NCBI RefSeq assembly: GCF_047605025.1
Contig: NZ_JASGGO010000015.1
Location: 2,970 to 66,969, forward strand
DNA: 64,000 nt
Reading direction: 5' to 3'
Source: Paracoccus sp. (in: a-proteobacteria)
Lineage (GTDB): Bacteria; Pseudomonadota; Alphaproteobacteria; Rhodobacterales; Rhodobacteraceae
Shown here: positions 10,020 through 59,272 of the stretch, piece after piece
Position numbering within the stretch: position 1 is the stretch's first letter
How the letters are laid out: every line of letters starts with the position of its first letter
The notes under the pieces: generated by a model
What the model saw: only the letters and a program-made list of their open reading frames with translations
Told to the model about the DNA's origin: nothing
Database searches by the model: none
Made by a program: the position numbers and the translations under genes

Positions 10020-10047
10020 AAAGGGCCGCCTCGGTGGGCGGCCCTTT
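10020..10047. terminator. Bidirectional intrinsic terminator between cyt b561-YceI and ndk
   Basis: Perfect 11-bp stem AAAGGGCCGCC/GGCGGCCCTTT with a 6-nt loop, and A/T runs on both sides. Confidence 0.7.
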
Positions 10048-10051
10048 CCTT

Positions 10052-10073
10052 GGGTATTTGCGAAACGAAGAAG
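10052..10073 (+). repeat. Intergenic box copy F (GGGTATTTGCGAAACGAAGAAG)
   Basis: Matches the GGRTATTTG...AAGAAG core seen at 6 other intergenic sites. Sits immediately 3' of the hairpin at 10020-10047. Confidence 0.55.
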
Positions 10074-26138: not shown

Positions 26139-26142
26139 GCCC

Positions 26143-26163
26143 CTCTTTCTTGCCCAAATATCC
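26143..26163 (-). repeat. Intergenic box copy A (minus strand reads GGATATTTGGGCAAGAAAGAG)
   Basis: Core shared with copies at 34357, 49703 and 53942. Confidence 0.65.
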
Positions 26164-26172
26164 TGGGGGGGA

Positions 26173-26226
26173 ACGCCTGGACACCCCCATCAAGGGGGCG
26201 TCCAGGCGTGGGGGGCAAAGCCCCCC
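26173..26226 (-). terminator. 16-bp hairpin plus adjacent GGGGGGC/GCCCCCC hairpin downstream of holC
   Basis: ACGCCTGGACACCCCC-atcaa-GGGGGCGTCCAGGCGT. The single A:C on the plus strand becomes G:U on the minus strand. A second 7-bp hairpin lies at 26210-26226. Confidence 0.6.
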
Positions 26227-26676
26227 TTACTGCCTGCGCTCCCAACGGCCATCGGCCTCGGACCAATATTCAGCGGTAACCCCCTCGGCCTTCAATTGCC
26301 GCCATTGCACACGCGCACGCTCCAATGCCTGCGGATCGCTGCCGTCGAAAAGAATGCAACAGCGCTCCATCGCCTGGCACTCGCCCCCTTCGACCCCGAC
26401 CCCGTCCAGCGCGATCAGGCAGCGAGGTGCGTTCGGCGCCCCCTGCCCCTCGACTGTCAGCAGCACCGGCTGCCTCGGATCATGCGGCCCGCCCGCCAAG
26501 CCATGCGGCAGAAAGCCGTCCCCCTGCCACAGCCGCTCATCCAGCGCCGCCTGGCGCGCGCGGTCCCTGCCCCGCAACTCGACCCGCCACCCTGCTTGCA
26601 GGCTCTTGCCGATCAGCACCGGCAAAAGCTGCTCCGGGCCCGAGCGGGTCAGGTGATAGAACAGGGCCGCGCCCAT
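26227..26676 (-). CDS. holC: DNA polymerase III chi subunit
   Basis: 149 aa, ALFYHLTRSGPEQLLPVLIGKSL N-terminus. Immediately downstream of pepA, the conserved pepA-holC pair. Confidence 0.87.
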   Translation of the reverse strand: MGAALFYHLTRSGPEQLLPVLIGKSLQAGWRVELRGRDRARQAALDERLWQGDGFLPHGLAGGPHDPRQPVLLTVEGQGAPNAPRCLIALDGVGVEGGECQAMERCCILFDGSDPQALERARVQWRQLKAEGVTAEYWSEADGRWERRQ

Positions 26677-34297: not shown

Positions 34298-34320
34298 CGG
34301 GGGCTCCGCCCCCGCGTTTT
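34298..34320 (+). terminator. Intrinsic terminator after surA
   Basis: CGGGGGC-tcc-GCCCCCG followed by CGTTTT. Confidence 0.6.
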
Positions 34321-34376
34321 GCGTGCCCCTAAATGGGGCGCGCAAAGCGCTCCCCCGGGATATTTGGACAAGAAAG
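34314..34376 (+). repeat. 16-bp hairpin (34314-34350) plus intergenic box copy B (34357-34376, GGGATATTTGGACAAGAAAG)
   Basis: GCGTTTTGCGTGCCCC-taaat-GGGGCGCGCAAAGCGC with two G:U pairs only on the plus strand. The box ends 1 nt before the pdxA ATG. Confidence 0.65.
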
Positions 34377-34377
34377 A

Positions 34378-35349
34378 ATGAGTTTGGCCCGGCCCATCAT
34401 CCTGACCTGCGGCGAACCAGCGGGGGTCGGCCCGGAACTGGCGCCGAAGGCGCTGGCATCGGGCGTGCCCTTCGTCTTTCTGGGCGATCCCCGGCATCTG
34501 CCCGAAGGAACGGACTGGGTCGAACTGGAAGCCCTGTCGGAACCGCTGCCCGAGGGACGGCTGGCGGTACTGCGCCACGAGTTTCCGACGCCCCGCGTGG
34601 CAGGGCAACCCGACCCCGCCAATGCGCAGGCCGTGATCGACGTGATCGCGCGGGCGGTGGGTCTGGCCCAATCCGGGGCGGCGGGCGGGATCTGCACGCT
34701 GCCGATCAGCAAGGAGGCGCTGAAGCGGGGCGCGAGTTTTCCCTTTCCGGGTCATACGGAATATCTGGCGCATCTGGCGGGTGGCGTGCCGGTGGCCATG
34801 ATGCTGGCCTCGACCGAAGCCGAGCCGCCTTGCCGGGTGGTGCCGGTGACGATCCATATCGCCCTGTCCCAGGTCCCGGCGGCCTTCACCCCCGCCGCTT
34901 TGGAGCAGGCGATCCGCATGACCGACGCCGCATTACGCCGGGATTTCGGCATTCAGGCACCACGGCTGGCCGTGGCCGGGCTGAACCCGCATGCCGGCGA
35001 GAATGGCGTGATGGGCCATGAGGAAGCGACCTGGATCGCGGCCCTGGTTGCGCGGCTGCGCGGCGAGGGGTTTGCGCTGACCGGCCCTCTGCCCGCGGAC
35101 ACGATGTTTCACGCCCCGGCGCGCAGCCGCTATGACGCCGCGATCTGTGCCTATCACGATCAGGCGCTGATCCCGATCAAGACGCTGGATTTCGCGGGCG
35201 GGGTCAATGTGACGCTGGGCCTGCCATTCGTGCGGACCTCTCCCGATCACGGCACCGCCTTCGACATCGCCGGGCGCGGCATCGCCGAGGCGGGCAGCGT
35301 CGTCGCCGCCTTGCGCATGGCCTGGGAGATGGCGGGGCGCCGGGCATGA
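34378..35349 (+). CDS. pdxA: 4-hydroxythreonine-4-phosphate dehydrogenase
   Basis: [22 protein letters not shown]-terminus, [18 protein letters not shown] blocks. Confidence 0.93.
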
Positions 35350-43653: not shown

Positions 43654-44484
43654 ATGGGCTACAAGTCCATTCTGACCGTGCTGACCGGCGAGGCGCGGCA
43701 GCAGCTTGATTCGGCCGTCGCCATGACCCGGCGCGAGAATGCGCATCTGGATGTTTTCTGCTTGGGCGTCGATCACAGCCAGGTCGGCTATTATTATGCC
43801 GGCGCCTCGGCCTATGTGTTGCAGGAAACCATCGACAAAGCCGTGGCCTCGGCGGGTGAGTTGGAACAGAAAGTGCGTGATCGGCTGGCCCCCGAGGATA
43901 TCCGCTGGTCGGTCGATTCCGCTGTCGCGCAGGTGGGCGGCCTGTCCACGCTGGTGGCGCTGCGGGCGCGCTATTCGGATCTGGTGGTGTTGAACCGGCC
44001 CTATGGCGAAGGCGCCTCGGCCGATGCGGAGGCGATCACCGAAGCCGCCCTATTCGAGGGCGCCGCTCCGGTGCTGATCGTTCCGCATGAACTGACCGAG
44101 CCCTTCGGCAAGCGCATCCTGATCGCCTGGAACCAGTCGAGCGAGGCGATGGCTGCGGTGCGCCGCGCGCTGCCGCTTCTCCAGGCCGCCGATGCGGTCG
44201 AAATCACGGTGATCGATCCTTCGCCCAACGGGCCGGAACGCTCGGACCCCGGCGGAGCCTTGTGCCAGATGCTGACGCGCCATGGCGTCCGGGCCGAGAT
44301 CGCAGTCCTGGCCCGCACCCTGCCCCAGGTCAGCGACATCCTGACCCGCCGCGCGACCGAGATCGGCGCCGACATGGTGGTGATGGGTGCCTATGGCCAT
44401 TCGCGCTTTCGCCAGGCCATTCTGGGCGGCGCCACGCGCAATATGCTGGAAAAGGCCACCGTCCCGGTGCTGATGGCCCGCTAG
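43654..44484 (+). CDS. Tandem-domain universal stress protein (UspA family)
   Basis: ATG preceded by AGGAGAGAGG. C-terminal Usp motif ADMVVMGAYGHSRFRQAILGGATRNML. Confidence 0.87.
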   Translation: MGYKSILTVLTGEARQQLDSAVAMTRRENAHLDVFCLGVDHSQVGYYYAGASAYVLQETIDKAVASAGELEQKVRDRLAPEDIRWSVDSAVAQVGGLSTLVALRARYSDLVVLNRPYGEGASADAEAITEAALFEGAAPVLIVPHELTEPFGKRILIAWNQSSEAMAAVRRALPLLQAADAVEITVIDPSPNGPERSDPGGALCQMLTRHGVRAEIAVLARTLPQVSDILTRRATEIGADMVVMGAYGHSRFRQAILGGATRNMLEKATVPVLMAR

Positions 44485-46663: not shown

Positions 46664-46768
46664 TGCATGGGTATTTGGAAAGCGGAGAAGCACTGCGCCG
46701 CACCCCATGACCAAGACCGGCGCAGGACAAGATCCCCTCTGCATTCTTCGCTTCCGAAATACCCATGC
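46664..46768. repeat. Inverted pair of the intergenic box (E1 46664-46689, E2 46744-46768) around a 54-bp spacer containing an inner 8-bp hairpin
   Basis: GCATGGGTATTTGGAAAGCGGAGAA versus revcomp GCATGGGTATTTCGGAAGCGAAGAA (22/25). Inner CTGCGCCG/CGGCGCAG at 46693-46725. Confidence 0.6.
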
Positions 46769-49609: not shown

Positions 49610-49702
49610 GGATGCCTCCGTCTGCCGCTGCCGAATACAGCCCCCTTCTGGCACGAAGCGGAACGGGGGCCAAGACCGGGGACAGACCCGGCATCGCCGC
49701 AT

Positions 49703-49735
49703 CTTTCTTGTTCAAATATCCCCGCCGGAGGCAGC
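49703..49735 (-). repeat. Intergenic box copy C, long form (plus strand CTTTCTTGTTCAAATATCCCCGCCGGAGGCAGC)
   Basis: 31/33 identical to 53942-53974. Confidence 0.7.
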
Positions 49736-53143: not shown

Positions 53144-53923
53144 ATGATCTATCGGGTCGTGCCCAAATGCGCGTGCTCGTCCATCGGCCAGATCATGTTC
53201 TACTCGGACCACGGCCGCTACTTCGACGGCGACATCCACGATTCGACCTCGGGGCTGCATAAATGGAACCAAGAGGCCAGCCAGCCCCTGATCGAACAGT
53301 CCGTGCGCGAGCATAAGGCCCTGACCTTCACCTGCGTGCGCAATCCCTATGGGCGCATCCTGTCCTCGTTCTTCGACAAGATCGCGGGCGTCCAGCGCAA
53401 CGGCAAGCGGTATAGGGGCAATCTGGTGCCGCAACTGACGCAGCGTTACGGCATCGACGTGGGCAGCCCCGAGAACGATTTCCAGTTCGACCAGATCGCC
53501 AGTTTCCGCCGCTTCCTGCTCTTCGCGCGCGACACGATTCGCTGGCGCCGCCCGATGGAACCCGACATCCACTGGTCCGCGATGTCCGGCCATATCGCCA
53601 CCTTCATCGTGAACGGGGGCCGCTACGATCAGATCTTCTTCACCGAGAAATTCAACGAAGGCATGCAGAAGGTGCTGAACGCCTCCCCCACGCCCGTCAA
53701 GCTCGACGTGAACGAGGTGCCCAGGTTCAACGAATCCGAAGGTCACGGACCCAAGCGCGCGCATAAGATCGGCGAATATTTCGACGACCTGTCCCGGCAT
53801 CTGGTCTGGGAAATCTACAAGAAGGATTTCCAGCTCTTCAAATACGACTTCGACAACCCCGACAACAAATACCCCAGATCCGAGATCGACCTGGCCGAGG
53901 TCCATGCCAAGCTGGGCCGCTGA
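53144..53923 (+). CDS. Sulfotransferase family 2-like protein
   Basis: MIYRVVPKCACSSIGQ (5'-PSB-like PKxxxS/T) and TCVRNPYGRILSSF (RNPxxRxxS 3'-PB-like). Alternative in-frame ATGs at 53105 and 53126. Confidence 0.7.
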   Translation: MIYRVVPKCACSSIGQIMFYSDHGRYFDGDIHDSTSGLHKWNQEASQPLIEQSVREHKALTFTCVRNPYGRILSSFFDKIAGVQRNGKRYRGNLVPQLTQRYGIDVGSPENDFQFDQIASFRRFLLFARDTIRWRRPMEPDIHWSAMSGHIATFIVNGGRYDQIFFTEKFNEGMQKVLNASPTPVKLDVNEVPRFNESEGHGPKRAHKIGEYFDDLSRHLVWEIYKKDFQLFKYDFDNPDNKYPRSEIDLAEVHAKLGR

Positions 53924-53941
53924 AAGCGCCGCTCCGCCCTT

Positions 53942-53974
53942 CTTTCTTGCCCAAATATCCCCGCCGGAGGCAGC
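53942..53974 (-). repeat. Intergenic box copy D, long form (plus strand CTTTCTTGCCCAAATATCCCCGCCGGAGGCAGC)
   Basis: 31/33 identical to 49703-49735. Confidence 0.7.
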
Positions 53975-53995
53975 GGCGCGCCCGCGCCGCTTTTC
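53972..53995. terminator. Hairpin overlapping the end of box D
   Basis: AGCGGCGCG-cc-CGCGCCGCT followed by TTT on the plus strand, 49 nt after the sulfotransferase stop. Confidence 0.55.
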
Positions 53996-54026
53996 TTCCT
54001 CGCAGCCCCAGTTTTCCCTTGCGGAA

Positions 54027-54050
54027 CGGAAAAATAACGCTATTTTTCCG
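54027..54050. other. Perfect 10-bp AT-rich palindrome CGGAAAAATA-acgc-TATTTTTCCG
   Basis: Read directly, ~165 nt upstream of the rpmF ATG. Confidence 0.4.
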
Positions 54051-54115
54051 CCTTCATTCGACCGGCGGGGGATGACCCGGACCGAAGGCCCCCGTGCGCG
54101 CGATACGTTTCGCGC

Positions 54116-54144
54116 CTTGCGGCTGACGCTCTTCTGGCCTATGC
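54116..54144 (+). promoter_or_regulatory. Candidate promoter of rpmF-plsX-fabH
   Basis: CTTGCG-N17-CTATGC against CTTGAC-N17-CTATAT. About 65-nt leader. Confidence 0.3.
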
Positions 54145-54215
54145 CCCGCCCCAGACCCGAAATCAGAATCCGGGGCCGCCTTTCCGCCGCCCCCCGAACC
54201 CCTTGAGGATGTGAC

Positions 54216-59221: not shown

Positions 59222-59236
59222 CCGGCCTTCCGCTTG

Positions 59237-59261
59237 CCCCAATACCGAGCCAGTATCGGGG
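59237..59261. terminator. Imperfect hairpin between convergent dcd-like gene and small ORF
   Basis: CCCCAATAC-cgagcca-GTATCGGGG with one mismatch. Confidence 0.35.
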
Positions 59262-59272
59262 GGGTAACCCGC

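Follow-up and report, generated by a model that had tools for sequence, protein, structure and literature searches.

A probable REP/BIME-like, pseudoknotted modular repeat family centred on Paracoccus, and its possible role at mRNA 3' ends

Introduction

The stretch of DNA analysed here, referred to throughout as the window, comprises 64,000 nucleotides (nt) of a Paracoccus sp. contig (NZ_JASGGO010000015.1) with a GC content of 66%, and carries a short repeat in its intergenic spacers. The most conspicuous part of this repeat is a 33-nt box at 49703-49735, between a zf-CHCC gene and polA, which recurs at 53942-53974, beyond a sulfotransferase gene; related copies lie beside holC, between surA and pdxA, between a cyt b561-YceI gene and ndk, and between hemN and polA. 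Together with the relatives gathered from Paracoccus genomes, plasmid-database replicons and metagenomes, ~200 distinct copies in all, they very probably represent a Paracoccus-centred family of pseudoknotted, modular repeats, apparently undescribed, that resemble the repetitive extragenic palindromic (REP) elements and bacterial interspersed mosaic elements (BIMEs) of Escherichia coli. The full unit joins a GC-rich hairpin, the loop of which is complementary to bases further downstream, to an invariant GGRTATTT strand and a purine-rich tail.

The repeat in the window

An earlier, sequence-only reading of the window had drawn attention to the two boxes, and their letters are exactly as it gave them, differing at 2 of 33 positions. 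With both variable positions left free, the 33-mer pattern matches these two sites and no others in the window (0.00 expected, 100 shuffles), and the shorter CAAATAYCC is seen seven times against 0.31 expected; a match to the latter at 53866-53874 falls inside the sulfotransferase gene and is an unrelated coincidence. Profile hidden Markov models (HMMs), built solely from copies of other genomes and then run on the window, recovered four a-type copies (A-D) at E = 4e-10 to 2e-8 and, more weakly with the b-type model, three b-type copies (E, F1 and F2; Table 1). The claim of at least seven copies is thus borne out, with the addition of one eroded copy that was absent from the earlier list, and so is the division into two sub-types, with tail a (GGATATTT-N3-CAAGAAAGAA) and tail b (GGGTATTT-N3-AAAC/GNGNGAA). 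A family there is, then, but the box proposed as its core proved to be only the 3' module of a larger unit. New to the present analysis are the pseudoknot, the recognition of F1 and F2 as the arms of one unit, the genus-wide and wider range, and the biased orientation.

A further, degenerate copy had been proposed at 2002-2014, which is left unsupported because it gives no HMM match and has an AT-rich setting; a partial match at 43889 falls in a coding region and was discarded. The AT-rich island itself, at 2002-2060 (GGATATTGCATATTTATTAGACTTTCTGCACATAATTAAGG), is not a member of the family; it lies between two gene ends/starts and may be a promoter or regulatory region.

Table 1. Members of the repeat family in the window, with one adjoining terminator
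Feature	Position	Strand	HMM E-value	HMM match span	Composition and setting
Copy A (flagged site), type III	49702..49732	-	1.8e-8	49699-49732	GCCTCCGGCGG + GGATATTT-GAA-CAAGAAAGA
Copy B, type III	53939..53971	-	2.4e-9	53938-53971	GCCTCCGGCGG + GGATATTT-GGG-CAAGAAAGAAG
Resident intrinsic terminator beside B	53972..53999	+			AGCGGCGCG-CCC-GCGCCGCT + TTTCTTCC; abuts copy B
Copy C, complete type II-long unit	26143..26226	-	1.4e-9	26142-26172	P1 26210-26226 (GGGGGG-CTTTG-CCCCCC); P2 26173-26209 (apex GCCCCC-TTGA-TGGGGG); C-run + spacer A 26164-26172; GGATATTT-GGG-CAAGAAAGAG 26143-26163
Copy D, complete type II-long unit	34299..34378	+	4.2e-10	34348-34379	P1 34299-34313; P2 34314-34350; TCCCCCG 34351-34357; GGATATTT-GGA-CAAGAAAGAA 34358-34378
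Copy E, b-type tail	10052..10073	+	8.4e-5		GGGTATTT-GCG-AAACGAAGAAG
Copies F1 + F2, two arms of one 100-nt palindromic b-type unit	46667..46766		F1 0.017; F2 0.054		termini ATGGGTATTT...AAATACCCAT
Eroded copy	59226..59264	-			CCCCCCC...GGTATTGGGGCAAGCGGAAGG; dcd / 67-aa gene spacer

Anatomy of the unit

Read 5' to 3' on the GG strand, as throughout, the full unit begins with a GC hairpin (P1). Next comes a linker of 3 nt or, in its place, another hairpin (P2), then a second C-run and a spacer of 0-4 nt; the invariant GGRTATTT follows, and after three variable positions the unit closes with a purine tail (CAAGAAAGAA or AAACRGTGAAAG) that has a sharp 3' edge. P1 consists of G4-6, a loop of 5-9 nt and C4-6, and units measure ~33-90 nt. 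Three upstream modules can be distinguished. Type I reads (C/G)(C/T/G)GGGGG, a 5-9-nt loop, CCCCC(G/A)(G/C), A, CCCCC and the 0-4-nt spacer. In type II, P1 (GGGGGC-TYT-GCCCCC) leads directly into a second perfect hairpin, followed by (T)CCCCC and the spacer; the sequence of this P2 varies from copy to copy, and is either 11-19 nt long or ~37 nt with the conserved apex GCCCC-TCRA-YGGGGC. Type III, to which A and B belong, is GCCTCCGGCGG preceded by a locus-specific hairpin. The GC hairpin noticed earlier on the 5' side of the motif is real, and in C and D forms part of a defined two-hairpin module.

Tail a, CA(A/C)GAAAGAA, accompanies GGA, and tail b, AAAC(A/G)GTGAAAG or similar, accompanies GGG. 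Column entropy is near zero along the tail and climbs from 0.5 to 1.5-1.9 bits immediately past CAAGAAAGAA, a profile that is biased in that most seeds were chosen by the a-type pattern; a search with the 8-mer only gives the same picture. No covariation was found between the N3 bases and any other column. Upstream modules I, II and III combine with tails a and b, P2 is optional, and units stand as singles or doublets, so that the family is a mosaic of modules of the BIME kind.

The P1 and P2 stems are 98.5% Watson-Crick. In addition, the length of the second C-run follows that of the G-run, with (4,4,4) in 9 copies, (5,5,5) in 78 and (6,6,6) in 9 (r = 0.54), a coupling which suggests that the second C-run may be in contact with the P1 helix, either in the role of an alternative partner or as third strand. 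The lengths hint at an alternative helix or a C+.G-C triplex between this second, unpaired C-run and the P1 stem.

Evidence for a pseudoknot

The loop of P1 is complementary to the spacer and the following GG (helix S2) in more than ten compensated states, which points to a pseudoknot. Loop/spacer classes include TTTCACA/GTG, CTTTGCG and TTTTGCA/GCA, TTTCGCA/GCG, CGCTTCG/CGA, CTTTCCG/GGA, CCTACCG/GT, CTGTTTG/AA and ACTTCGCGT/TGCG. Twenty-two classes were distinguished, 17 of them with a spacer of at least 2 nt, and in 14 of these 17 there is full Watson-Crick complementarity between spacer and loop; permutations gave a mean of 6.1, and 14 was reached in 0 of 5000 of them. Among type II units, all 8 copies with loop CT[T]TG or CTTCG have spacer A, and of the 20 with loop CT[C]TG, CTCCG or CGCTG, 19 have spacer G and one has spacer GG. 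In the window, position 3 (T) of the copy C loop pairs with spacer A, as in the CTTTG-A class, and the CTCCG loop of copy D belongs to the class paired with spacer G.

Pairs were also counted on a 20-sequence type I alignment, in which S1 joins columns 1-8 with 14-21, and S2 columns 9-13 with 29-33. Here 94.1% of cells are paired, against 82.8% in shuffled alignments (0/500) and 36-66% in slid controls, and the covariation score is 0.367 against 0.162 when shuffled (0/500). Pair 11-31 is found as UA10/CG8/AU2 and pair 12-30 as AU6/GC5/UG3, with no unpaired cell in either, while in S1 covariation is found at the base (CG/GC, CG/UA) and likewise at the closing pair (CG12/UA8). Two of the S2 pairs use the GG of GGRTATTT and are mostly U.G, which on the other strand would give A.C.

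As the hypothesis was drawn from genome loci, the metagenome copies and two outgroup genera make up an independent set. This yielded new compensated states, CTTCGCG/GCG and CTGCGCG/GCG, as well as CTTCACG/GTG in Gemmobacter and CTCCG/GGAG in Sagittula, and its sole two apparent exceptions are parsing errors. A hairpin loop predicted to pair with a strand 3' of its own hairpin, with compensatory changes on both sides, is the arrangement of the H-type pseudoknot class.

Family size and taxonomic range

One genome per species was scanned for GGATATTTGNNCAAGAAAG, and at least ten Paracoccus species were matched. Among the matches listed, multiple loci were found in P. yeei, P. aminovorans, P. denitrificans, P. 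pacificus, P. panacisoli, P. ravus, P. litorisediminis, P. binzhouensis, P. luteus and Paracoccaceae metagenome-assembled genomes, the other matches listed being scattered singles in low-GC genomes. In 585 kb of high-GC Paracoccus loci, GG[AG]TATTT is present 118 times, where a composition-based estimate gives ~8 by chance, and 97 of the 118 sites have the purine tail and upstream modules, representing 90 distinct copies. A metagenome scan contributed 96 additional distinct copies, and the plasmid database PLSDB holds the element on 22 Paracoccus replicons. Extrapolation from the window, which was unselected and has 7 copies and 1 eroded in 64 kb, would put the total at ~150-500 copies per genome.

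Beyond Paracoccus, type I pseudoknot units are present in Gemmobacter fulvus and Sagittula sp. (Roseobacteraceae), where their tails take the form GG(A)TATTT-N3-CCAAGATGAAGG. Type I modules with GGATATTT, in this case followed by unrelated 3' flanks and no Paracoccus tail, were found on 24-35 kb plasmids of Xanthobacter, Ancylobacter and Rhizobium (L243, L244 and L245), and these Hyphomicrobiales copies suggest horizontal spread of the core module. One copy is common to three provirus-like IMG/VR contigs of 70% GC. Since the tails differ by genus while the rest is constant, the hairpin, pseudoknot and GGRTATTT can be regarded as a widely conserved core, and the tail as lineage-specific.

A separate observation concerns P. 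denitrificans DSM 413 (L041, L045, L049, L073), in which an a-type core, downstream of a putative homogentisate dioxygenase gene, is preceded by a short (GGCCGA)n-like tandem (GAAGGCCGAGGGCCGAGGGCCGAGAGCCGG) and no hairpin; the presence of this locus at several contig ends suggests assembly redundancy.

Genomic position, orientation and terminators

In the window, copy C occupies nearly all of the convergent spacer 26139-26226, beginning at the base right after the holC stop (26227-26229, - strand) and ending 4 nt short of the stop of a convergent aspartyl-protease gene (end 26138, + strand). Copy D begins 14 nt past the stop of surA (34284), and its tail overlaps the pdxA ATG by its final base, the A at 34378. 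Copy A has the sense orientation in the spacer from the zf-CHCC stop (~49790) to the likely start of polA (~49609), with a terminator-like hairpin on its 3' side (49670-49692). Copy E is directly 3' of the canonical terminator (10020-10051) of the cyt b561-YceI gene and finishes 5 nt short of the stop of ndk, a convergent gene. The F unit sits between convergent hemN and polA. A co-oriented upstream gene, which had been claimed for six copies, is found for E (cyt b561-YceI), C (holC), D (surA), A (zf-CHCC), F1 (hemN) and F2 (polA), and not for B.

Gene calls in the wider set of loci were our own and GC3-based. The 5' neighbour of the unit is the end of a co-oriented gene in 48 copies and the start of a divergent gene in 14. 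By spacer type, the 79 placed copies fall into 36 convergent, 20 tandem-sense, 14 tandem-antisense and 9 divergent cases, in loci whose spacers amount to 16.1 kb convergent (23%), 33.2 kb tandem and 21.2 kb divergent (30%). Six of the 14 tandem-antisense cases are orthologues of B, and five of the nine 'divergent' cases are sites orthologous to A, wrongly classed since the gene calls had overlooked the 62-aa zf-CHCC gene. After correction, convergent 3' ends are strongly enriched in copies, divergent promoter spacers hold almost none, and tandem spacers show a ~2:1 preference for the sense orientation. A co-oriented long open reading frame (ORF) ends no more than 200 nt upstream of P1 in 89 of 132 pseudoknot-type copies, with a median stop-to-P1 gap of 14 nt (<=15 nt in 50 copies, <=5 nt in 19). 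Tail-to-tail doublets account for 20 of 90 copies (ten pairs, 38-56 nt apart), their centres being non-homologous and their halves able to differ in sub-type (I with II, a with b); head-to-head doublets were not seen among the 90. With copies at gene 3' ends, mostly in sense and near terminators, the suggestion of a module associated with 3' untranslated regions (UTRs) or terminators, whether RNA element, protein site, or repeat resembling REPs or miniature transposable elements with inverted repeats (MITEs), has held up well.

The relation to terminators is close. Many tails pass straight into resident A-tract/hairpin/U-tract terminators, as in the pdhC/RND spacer (...CACGAAAGAA-AAAGGGGGCC...GGCCCCCTTT). 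In the window, a consensus terminator scan supported only the terminator beside B, which shows an A-T to G-C compensatory change among orthologues, and a match on P1 of copy D is an artefact. Units of types I and II do not themselves have the layout of a canonical intrinsic terminator (a GC-rich hairpin with a U-rich tract 0-2 nt past it), AUAUUU lying 7-14 nt past the P1/P2 stem. It has to be considered whether they could instead be pseudoknot-dependent terminators or pause sites, with S2 stacked on S1 as the terminator stem and AUAUUU as the U-tract, ending the upstream transcript. The 3' strand of S2 (NNN-GG) is indeed directly followed by AUAUUU, units lie past stop codons in sense, and in some spacers (C, D) no other terminator fits; however, S2 has just 3-5 bp, partly U.G, and the tract begins with A and has only 4 U. 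Moreover, a canonical terminator stands a few nt beyond many of the units, so transcription would normally pass through them, and full termination is unlikely at D, which lies within a surA-pdxA-rsmA string with the pdxA start at the end of its tail. We consider this explanation improbable.

Enrichment between convergent genes, where supercoils accumulate, also raises the question of a site in duplex DNA, a rigid 21-bp GGRTATTT-N3-CAAGAAAGAA bound by a nucleoid, topology or termination protein, the hairpins being incidental terminators. IHF and gyrase bind BIMEs, and the Paracoccus unit has two invariant blocks exactly 3 free bases apart that span two helical turns, with an AT-rich block in a genome of 66% GC. 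Core and tail are retained in type III and b-type copies, where the pseudoknot module is missing, and copy B is conserved though antisense, both as would be expected of such a site. What it leaves unexplained is the loop-spacer covariation, the length coupling of G-run and second C-run, and the sense bias and proximity to stop codons; furthermore, the tails vary by genus whereas GGRTATTT and the pseudoknot are constant, and comparison by eye with the IHF, DnaA, CtrA, LexA and dif consensus sequences (with no formal scan) gave no match. A duplex protein site as the basis of the family is on balance a long shot.

Evolution of sites

An exact-protein look-up with L32 gave ten related contigs for orthologue comparison, and over an 8-kb orthologous stretch the window is ~83% identical to P. 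yeei. Copy B has a mean identity of 91% across 9 distinct orthologues, with spacer flanks at 32% and 60%. At site A only GCCTCCGGCGGGGRTATTTG is common to the orthologues, the window having an a-tail and its relatives b-tails. In the dcd spacer, relatives (L095, L096, L098) have an intact type II-long unit, the P2 stem of which shows compensatory substitutions between species, and the window keeps the eroded tail only. The F unit is missing from the orthologous spacer of the relatives (27-51 nt, with a plain hairpin) and, being confined to the window lineage, represents a presence/absence polymorphism. The pdhC/RND unit of P. pantotrophus, P. ferrooxidans and P. denitrificans, carried on secondary replicons that are 92-94% identical, has an identical P1/pseudoknot module in all three; this is followed by GGATATTT...CA(A/C)GAAAGAA in two of the species, the other one having GGGTACTT...AAACGAAAAA. 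Between b-type palindromes of P. ferrooxidans and P. denitrificans on these replicons (L119 37607-37669 versus L120 37571-37632), both arms have changed in concert (CAACGAAGAAG versus AAACGGAAAG). Judged from these alignments, the sites are long-lived and keep their structure, but modules are replaced blockwise, which suggests gene conversion or re-insertion.

Three neighbouring features may be recorded here. The lpxI-lpxB spacer (L119 ~2560-2660) contains two b-type palindromic units in tandem. Near copy B, at 54041-54215, lies a ~175-nt non-coding stretch upstream of rpmF (L32, 54216-54422) that is 88.6% identical over 9 distinct Paracoccus orthologues, with adjoining spacer at 32-60% identity and no Rfam match; it could represent a hitherto undescribed leader for the rpmF-plsX-fabH operon. 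Between the terminator of B and this conserved region is a near-perfect AT-rich palindrome, GGAAAAATAACGCTATTTTTCC (54028-54050), which is not palindromic in relatives.

The comparisons bear directly on the main and serious rival to an RNA-level role, the two explanations considered above being less likely. The family could consist of selfish, non-autonomous mobile DNA of the REPIN, PATE or MITE kind, moved as single-stranded DNA (ssDNA) by a putative HUH/Y1-type or other transposase. P1 would then be the recognition hairpin, GGRTATTT the cleavage/joining site and the loop-spacer pairing a guide like that of IS200/IS605, and location at 3' ends would reflect tolerated or targeted insertion beside terminator hairpins. 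HUH enzymes, such as IS608 TnpA and the relaxases, act on a hairpin plus a conserved single-stranded site, a layout that the unit would share. Identical 50-nt units occur at non-orthologous loci of different species (L028/L038; L011/L059/L029), and the sharp 3' boundary, the restriction of the F unit to the window lineage, the copies on small Xanthobacter, Ancylobacter and Rhizobium plasmids and three provirus-like contigs, and the REPIN-like inverted doublets are all in keeping with mobility, as are perfect Watson-Crick palindromic stems with no sense-strand G.U excess. Set against this, all three sites compared over ~82-90% identical genomes are orthologously retained, so turnover is low, and no target-site duplication (TSD) or GTAG tag is seen. 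The partners of a doublet are of different sub-types, so that the doublet is not one transposed unit, and copies C (-) and D (+), which are separated by 8 kb, are oriented with their respective upstream genes and not along a common replication direction. Nor was a RAYT homologue found on Paracoccus PLSDB replicons or in 770 kb of loci, or a transposase beside the inspected copies. Selfish DNA is judged an unlikely explanation, albeit the strongest of the rivals.

Comparison with known elements

No described family accounts for the repeat, in agreement with the sequence-only reading, which had been unable to assign it to one. Rfam 15, applied at gathering and permissive thresholds to the window, to copy D alone and to five outgroup loci, placed no family on the copies, and at the gathering threshold returned two tRNAs only from the window; the top match below threshold on copy D, a gyrA RNA motif, scored 22 bits against a cut-off of 45 and is a generic GC-hairpin match. 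Literature searches by motif string and topic found no description of the element, none of the motif strings is present in the supplements of a P. denitrificans small RNA survey, and a survey of the Paracoccus mobilome reports no such small repeat (PMC3281130).

The reported lack of a partner gene in the window likewise stands, and no RAYT or other transposase gene was found near any inspected copy. A tblastn search with E. coli RayT gave no Paracoccus match in PLSDB, including secondary replicons of 1.5-2.2 Mb, nor in the 770 kb. Four identical P. denitrificans copies were considered as part of an insertion sequence (IS) and prove simply to be downstream of a putative homogentisate dioxygenase gene (hmgA, by N-terminus) on redundant contigs, and the gene enclosed by two copies ~1 kb apart, considered as a partner, reads by translation as a putative purU, next to a putative folD. 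Genes beside multi-copy or paired loci look, from their translations, like ordinary housekeeping genes. Also rejected, by eye, were sigma-70, sigma-54 and RpoH promoters on either strand, dif/Xer sites, integron attC, an origin from a tRNA T-arm, a DNA uptake sequence, and the IncP nic site, to which only the GCA spacer class has a resemblance (TATCCTGC).

REP elements offer a close comparison (background in PMC2817692 and PMC3733652). Like the REPs and BIMEs of E. coli and other enterobacteria, the Paracoccus units are short, GC-rich, palindromic and extragenic, number roughly hundreds, form mosaics of interchangeable modules, and lie at gene 3' ends and in convergent spacers as singles or inverted doublets. 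They differ in having no GTAG/CGTC tag, the 5' flank of P1 being variable (stop codons, A-rich or GCC); in the 21-nt invariant, non-palindromic, single-stranded block (GGRTATTT-N3-tail) that follows the hairpin; in the pairing of the hairpin loop with bases 5' of this block; and in a second C-run that is length-coupled to the stem. REP elements are co-transcribed, and have been proposed to act in mRNA 3'-end protection, in termination, and, when near stop codons, in translation.

The REPIN-RAYT system shares inverted doublets with a short spacer, largely vertical inheritance and long persistence. A REPIN, however, is a doublet of two like REPs, whereas the Paracoccus halves differ in sub-type and flank unrelated central hairpins, and no RAYT gene was detected on the PLSDB replicons or in the 770 kb of loci. 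The single pseudoknot units are not MITEs, having neither terminal inverted repeats nor TSDs, nor was a related IS met with. Inverted arms are a feature of the b-type palindromic units (F; L119, L120), some of which, though not consistently, are flanked by AT...AT. The Rhizobium-specific intergenic mosaic elements (RIMEs), reportedly described by Osteras et al. in 1995, are also lineage-restricted mosaics of intergenic palindromes from alphaproteobacteria; their sequences are probably unrelated, and they are not known to have a pseudoknot or GGRTATTT core.

In IS608-type ends a hairpin stands with a short segment that covaries with another, an arrangement suited to ssDNA recognition by a Y1 HUH enzyme. 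In this the ends of IS200/IS605 elements and PATEs resemble the Paracoccus unit; in the latter, however, the covarying partner is the hairpin loop and not the 5' foot of the hairpin, and there is no TnpA/TnpB gene, pair of left and right ends, or tetranucleotide target. Finally, H-type pseudoknots at mRNA 3' positions, such as viral read-through or frameshift stimulators and exonuclease-resistant RNAs, have the same pairing of a loop with downstream bases a few nt past a stop, and a compact fold beside a single-stranded exit strand. The viral examples are single-copy with defined recoding or Xrn1-blocking roles, whereas the Paracoccus family has hundreds of chromosomal copies after unrelated genes and no sign of recoding.

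A possible RNA 3'-end module

The best explanation overall, covering both description and mechanism, is that the family is a transcribed REP/BIME-like mosaic element that serves as an RNA 3'-end module, a reading that we hold with a little less than even confidence. Hints that it operates at the RNA level come from the U.G pairs of S2, the sense placement near stops and the excess in convergent spacers.

The specific mechanism is offered tentatively, with more reserve than the reading as a whole. The unit would be transcribed within the 3' UTR of the upstream gene, where the compact P1/P2/pseudoknot fold could block 3'->5' exonucleases and would be so near the stop codon that terminating ribosomes must melt it. 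The single-stranded R-U↓A-U-U-U leaving the fold could act as an RNase E-type entry site (RN↓WUU). RNase E in high-GC Rhodobacter is reported to prefer AU-rich sites with A/U at +1 and U at +2, and to release 3'-UTR fragments (PMC6238624); R-U↓A-U-U-U agrees with the preference at +1 and +2. The A-rich tail may double as the A-tract of the neighbouring terminator, and so supply a U-tract for transcription of the opposite strand, making the spacer a bidirectional stop. Copies would be kept by selection on structure, and homogenised or swapped by gene conversion between them.

Several points weigh against this proposal. Transcription, cleavage and stabilisation of the units are all things that we infer. 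The eight bases invariant across orders go beyond what RNase E needs, and suggest a sequence-specific partner, either protein or RNA. The P1/P2 stems have no excess of G.U on the sense strand (7 versus 5), so the hairpins themselves do not discriminate RNA from DNA, and in type III and b-type copies core and tail remain although the P1/pseudoknot module is absent. Pseudoknot geometry would make the closing pair and a five-pair S2, which would take up the whole 5-nt loop, sterically incompatible, in which case some of the pairs drawn are alternatives and the real fold probably has 3-4 S2 pairs or switches between states. The switching of tails a and b at orthologous sites shows homogenisation or replacement, which is able to mimic purifying selection. 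As regards position, many of the loci counted are orthologous to one another, and orientation in tandem spacers is biased and not strict, at 20 sense to 14 antisense in the raw counts and ~21 to 9 once orthologues are collapsed by hand and A is re-assigned. Copy B, the best conserved, is antisense to the gene it follows, a + strand sulfotransferase gene whose stop (53923) is 15 nt away.

A bolder form of the RNA reading, possible but somewhat unlikely, is that these units constitute a new class of multi-copy structured RNA, with hundreds of 3'-UTR modules per Paracoccus genome and variants across Rhodobacterales. Their hairpin-pseudoknot fold would offer the invariant GGRUAUUU-N3-purine strand to a dedicated factor, be it an endoribonuclease, Hfq or the ribosome, and the module would serve as a portable device, in use genome-wide, by which mRNA 3' ends are fixed and the termination of translation is linked either to decay or to how the next cistron is expressed. 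The alternative to such an RNA class is a new type of ssDNA transposon end with loop-guided site recognition.

Conclusions

Paracoccus denitrificans is a model for respiration and denitrification, and its most abundant intergenic repeat appears to have gone undescribed. The units explain why spurious ORFs and pseudo-peptides turn up, and are a probable source of some artefacts in assembly and alignment. The combination of a pseudoknot, a length-matched second C-run and an eight-base strand that is invariant across orders points to a specific molecular partner to be sought, and the family provides a natural library of compensated variants for the study of structure and function. It also presents a test case for a question of long standing, whether REP-like elements are domesticated RNA modules or persistent selfish DNA. 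If the units do shape mRNA 3' ends, the expression of hundreds of genes would be affected, and the annotation of operons and terminators would have to take them into account.

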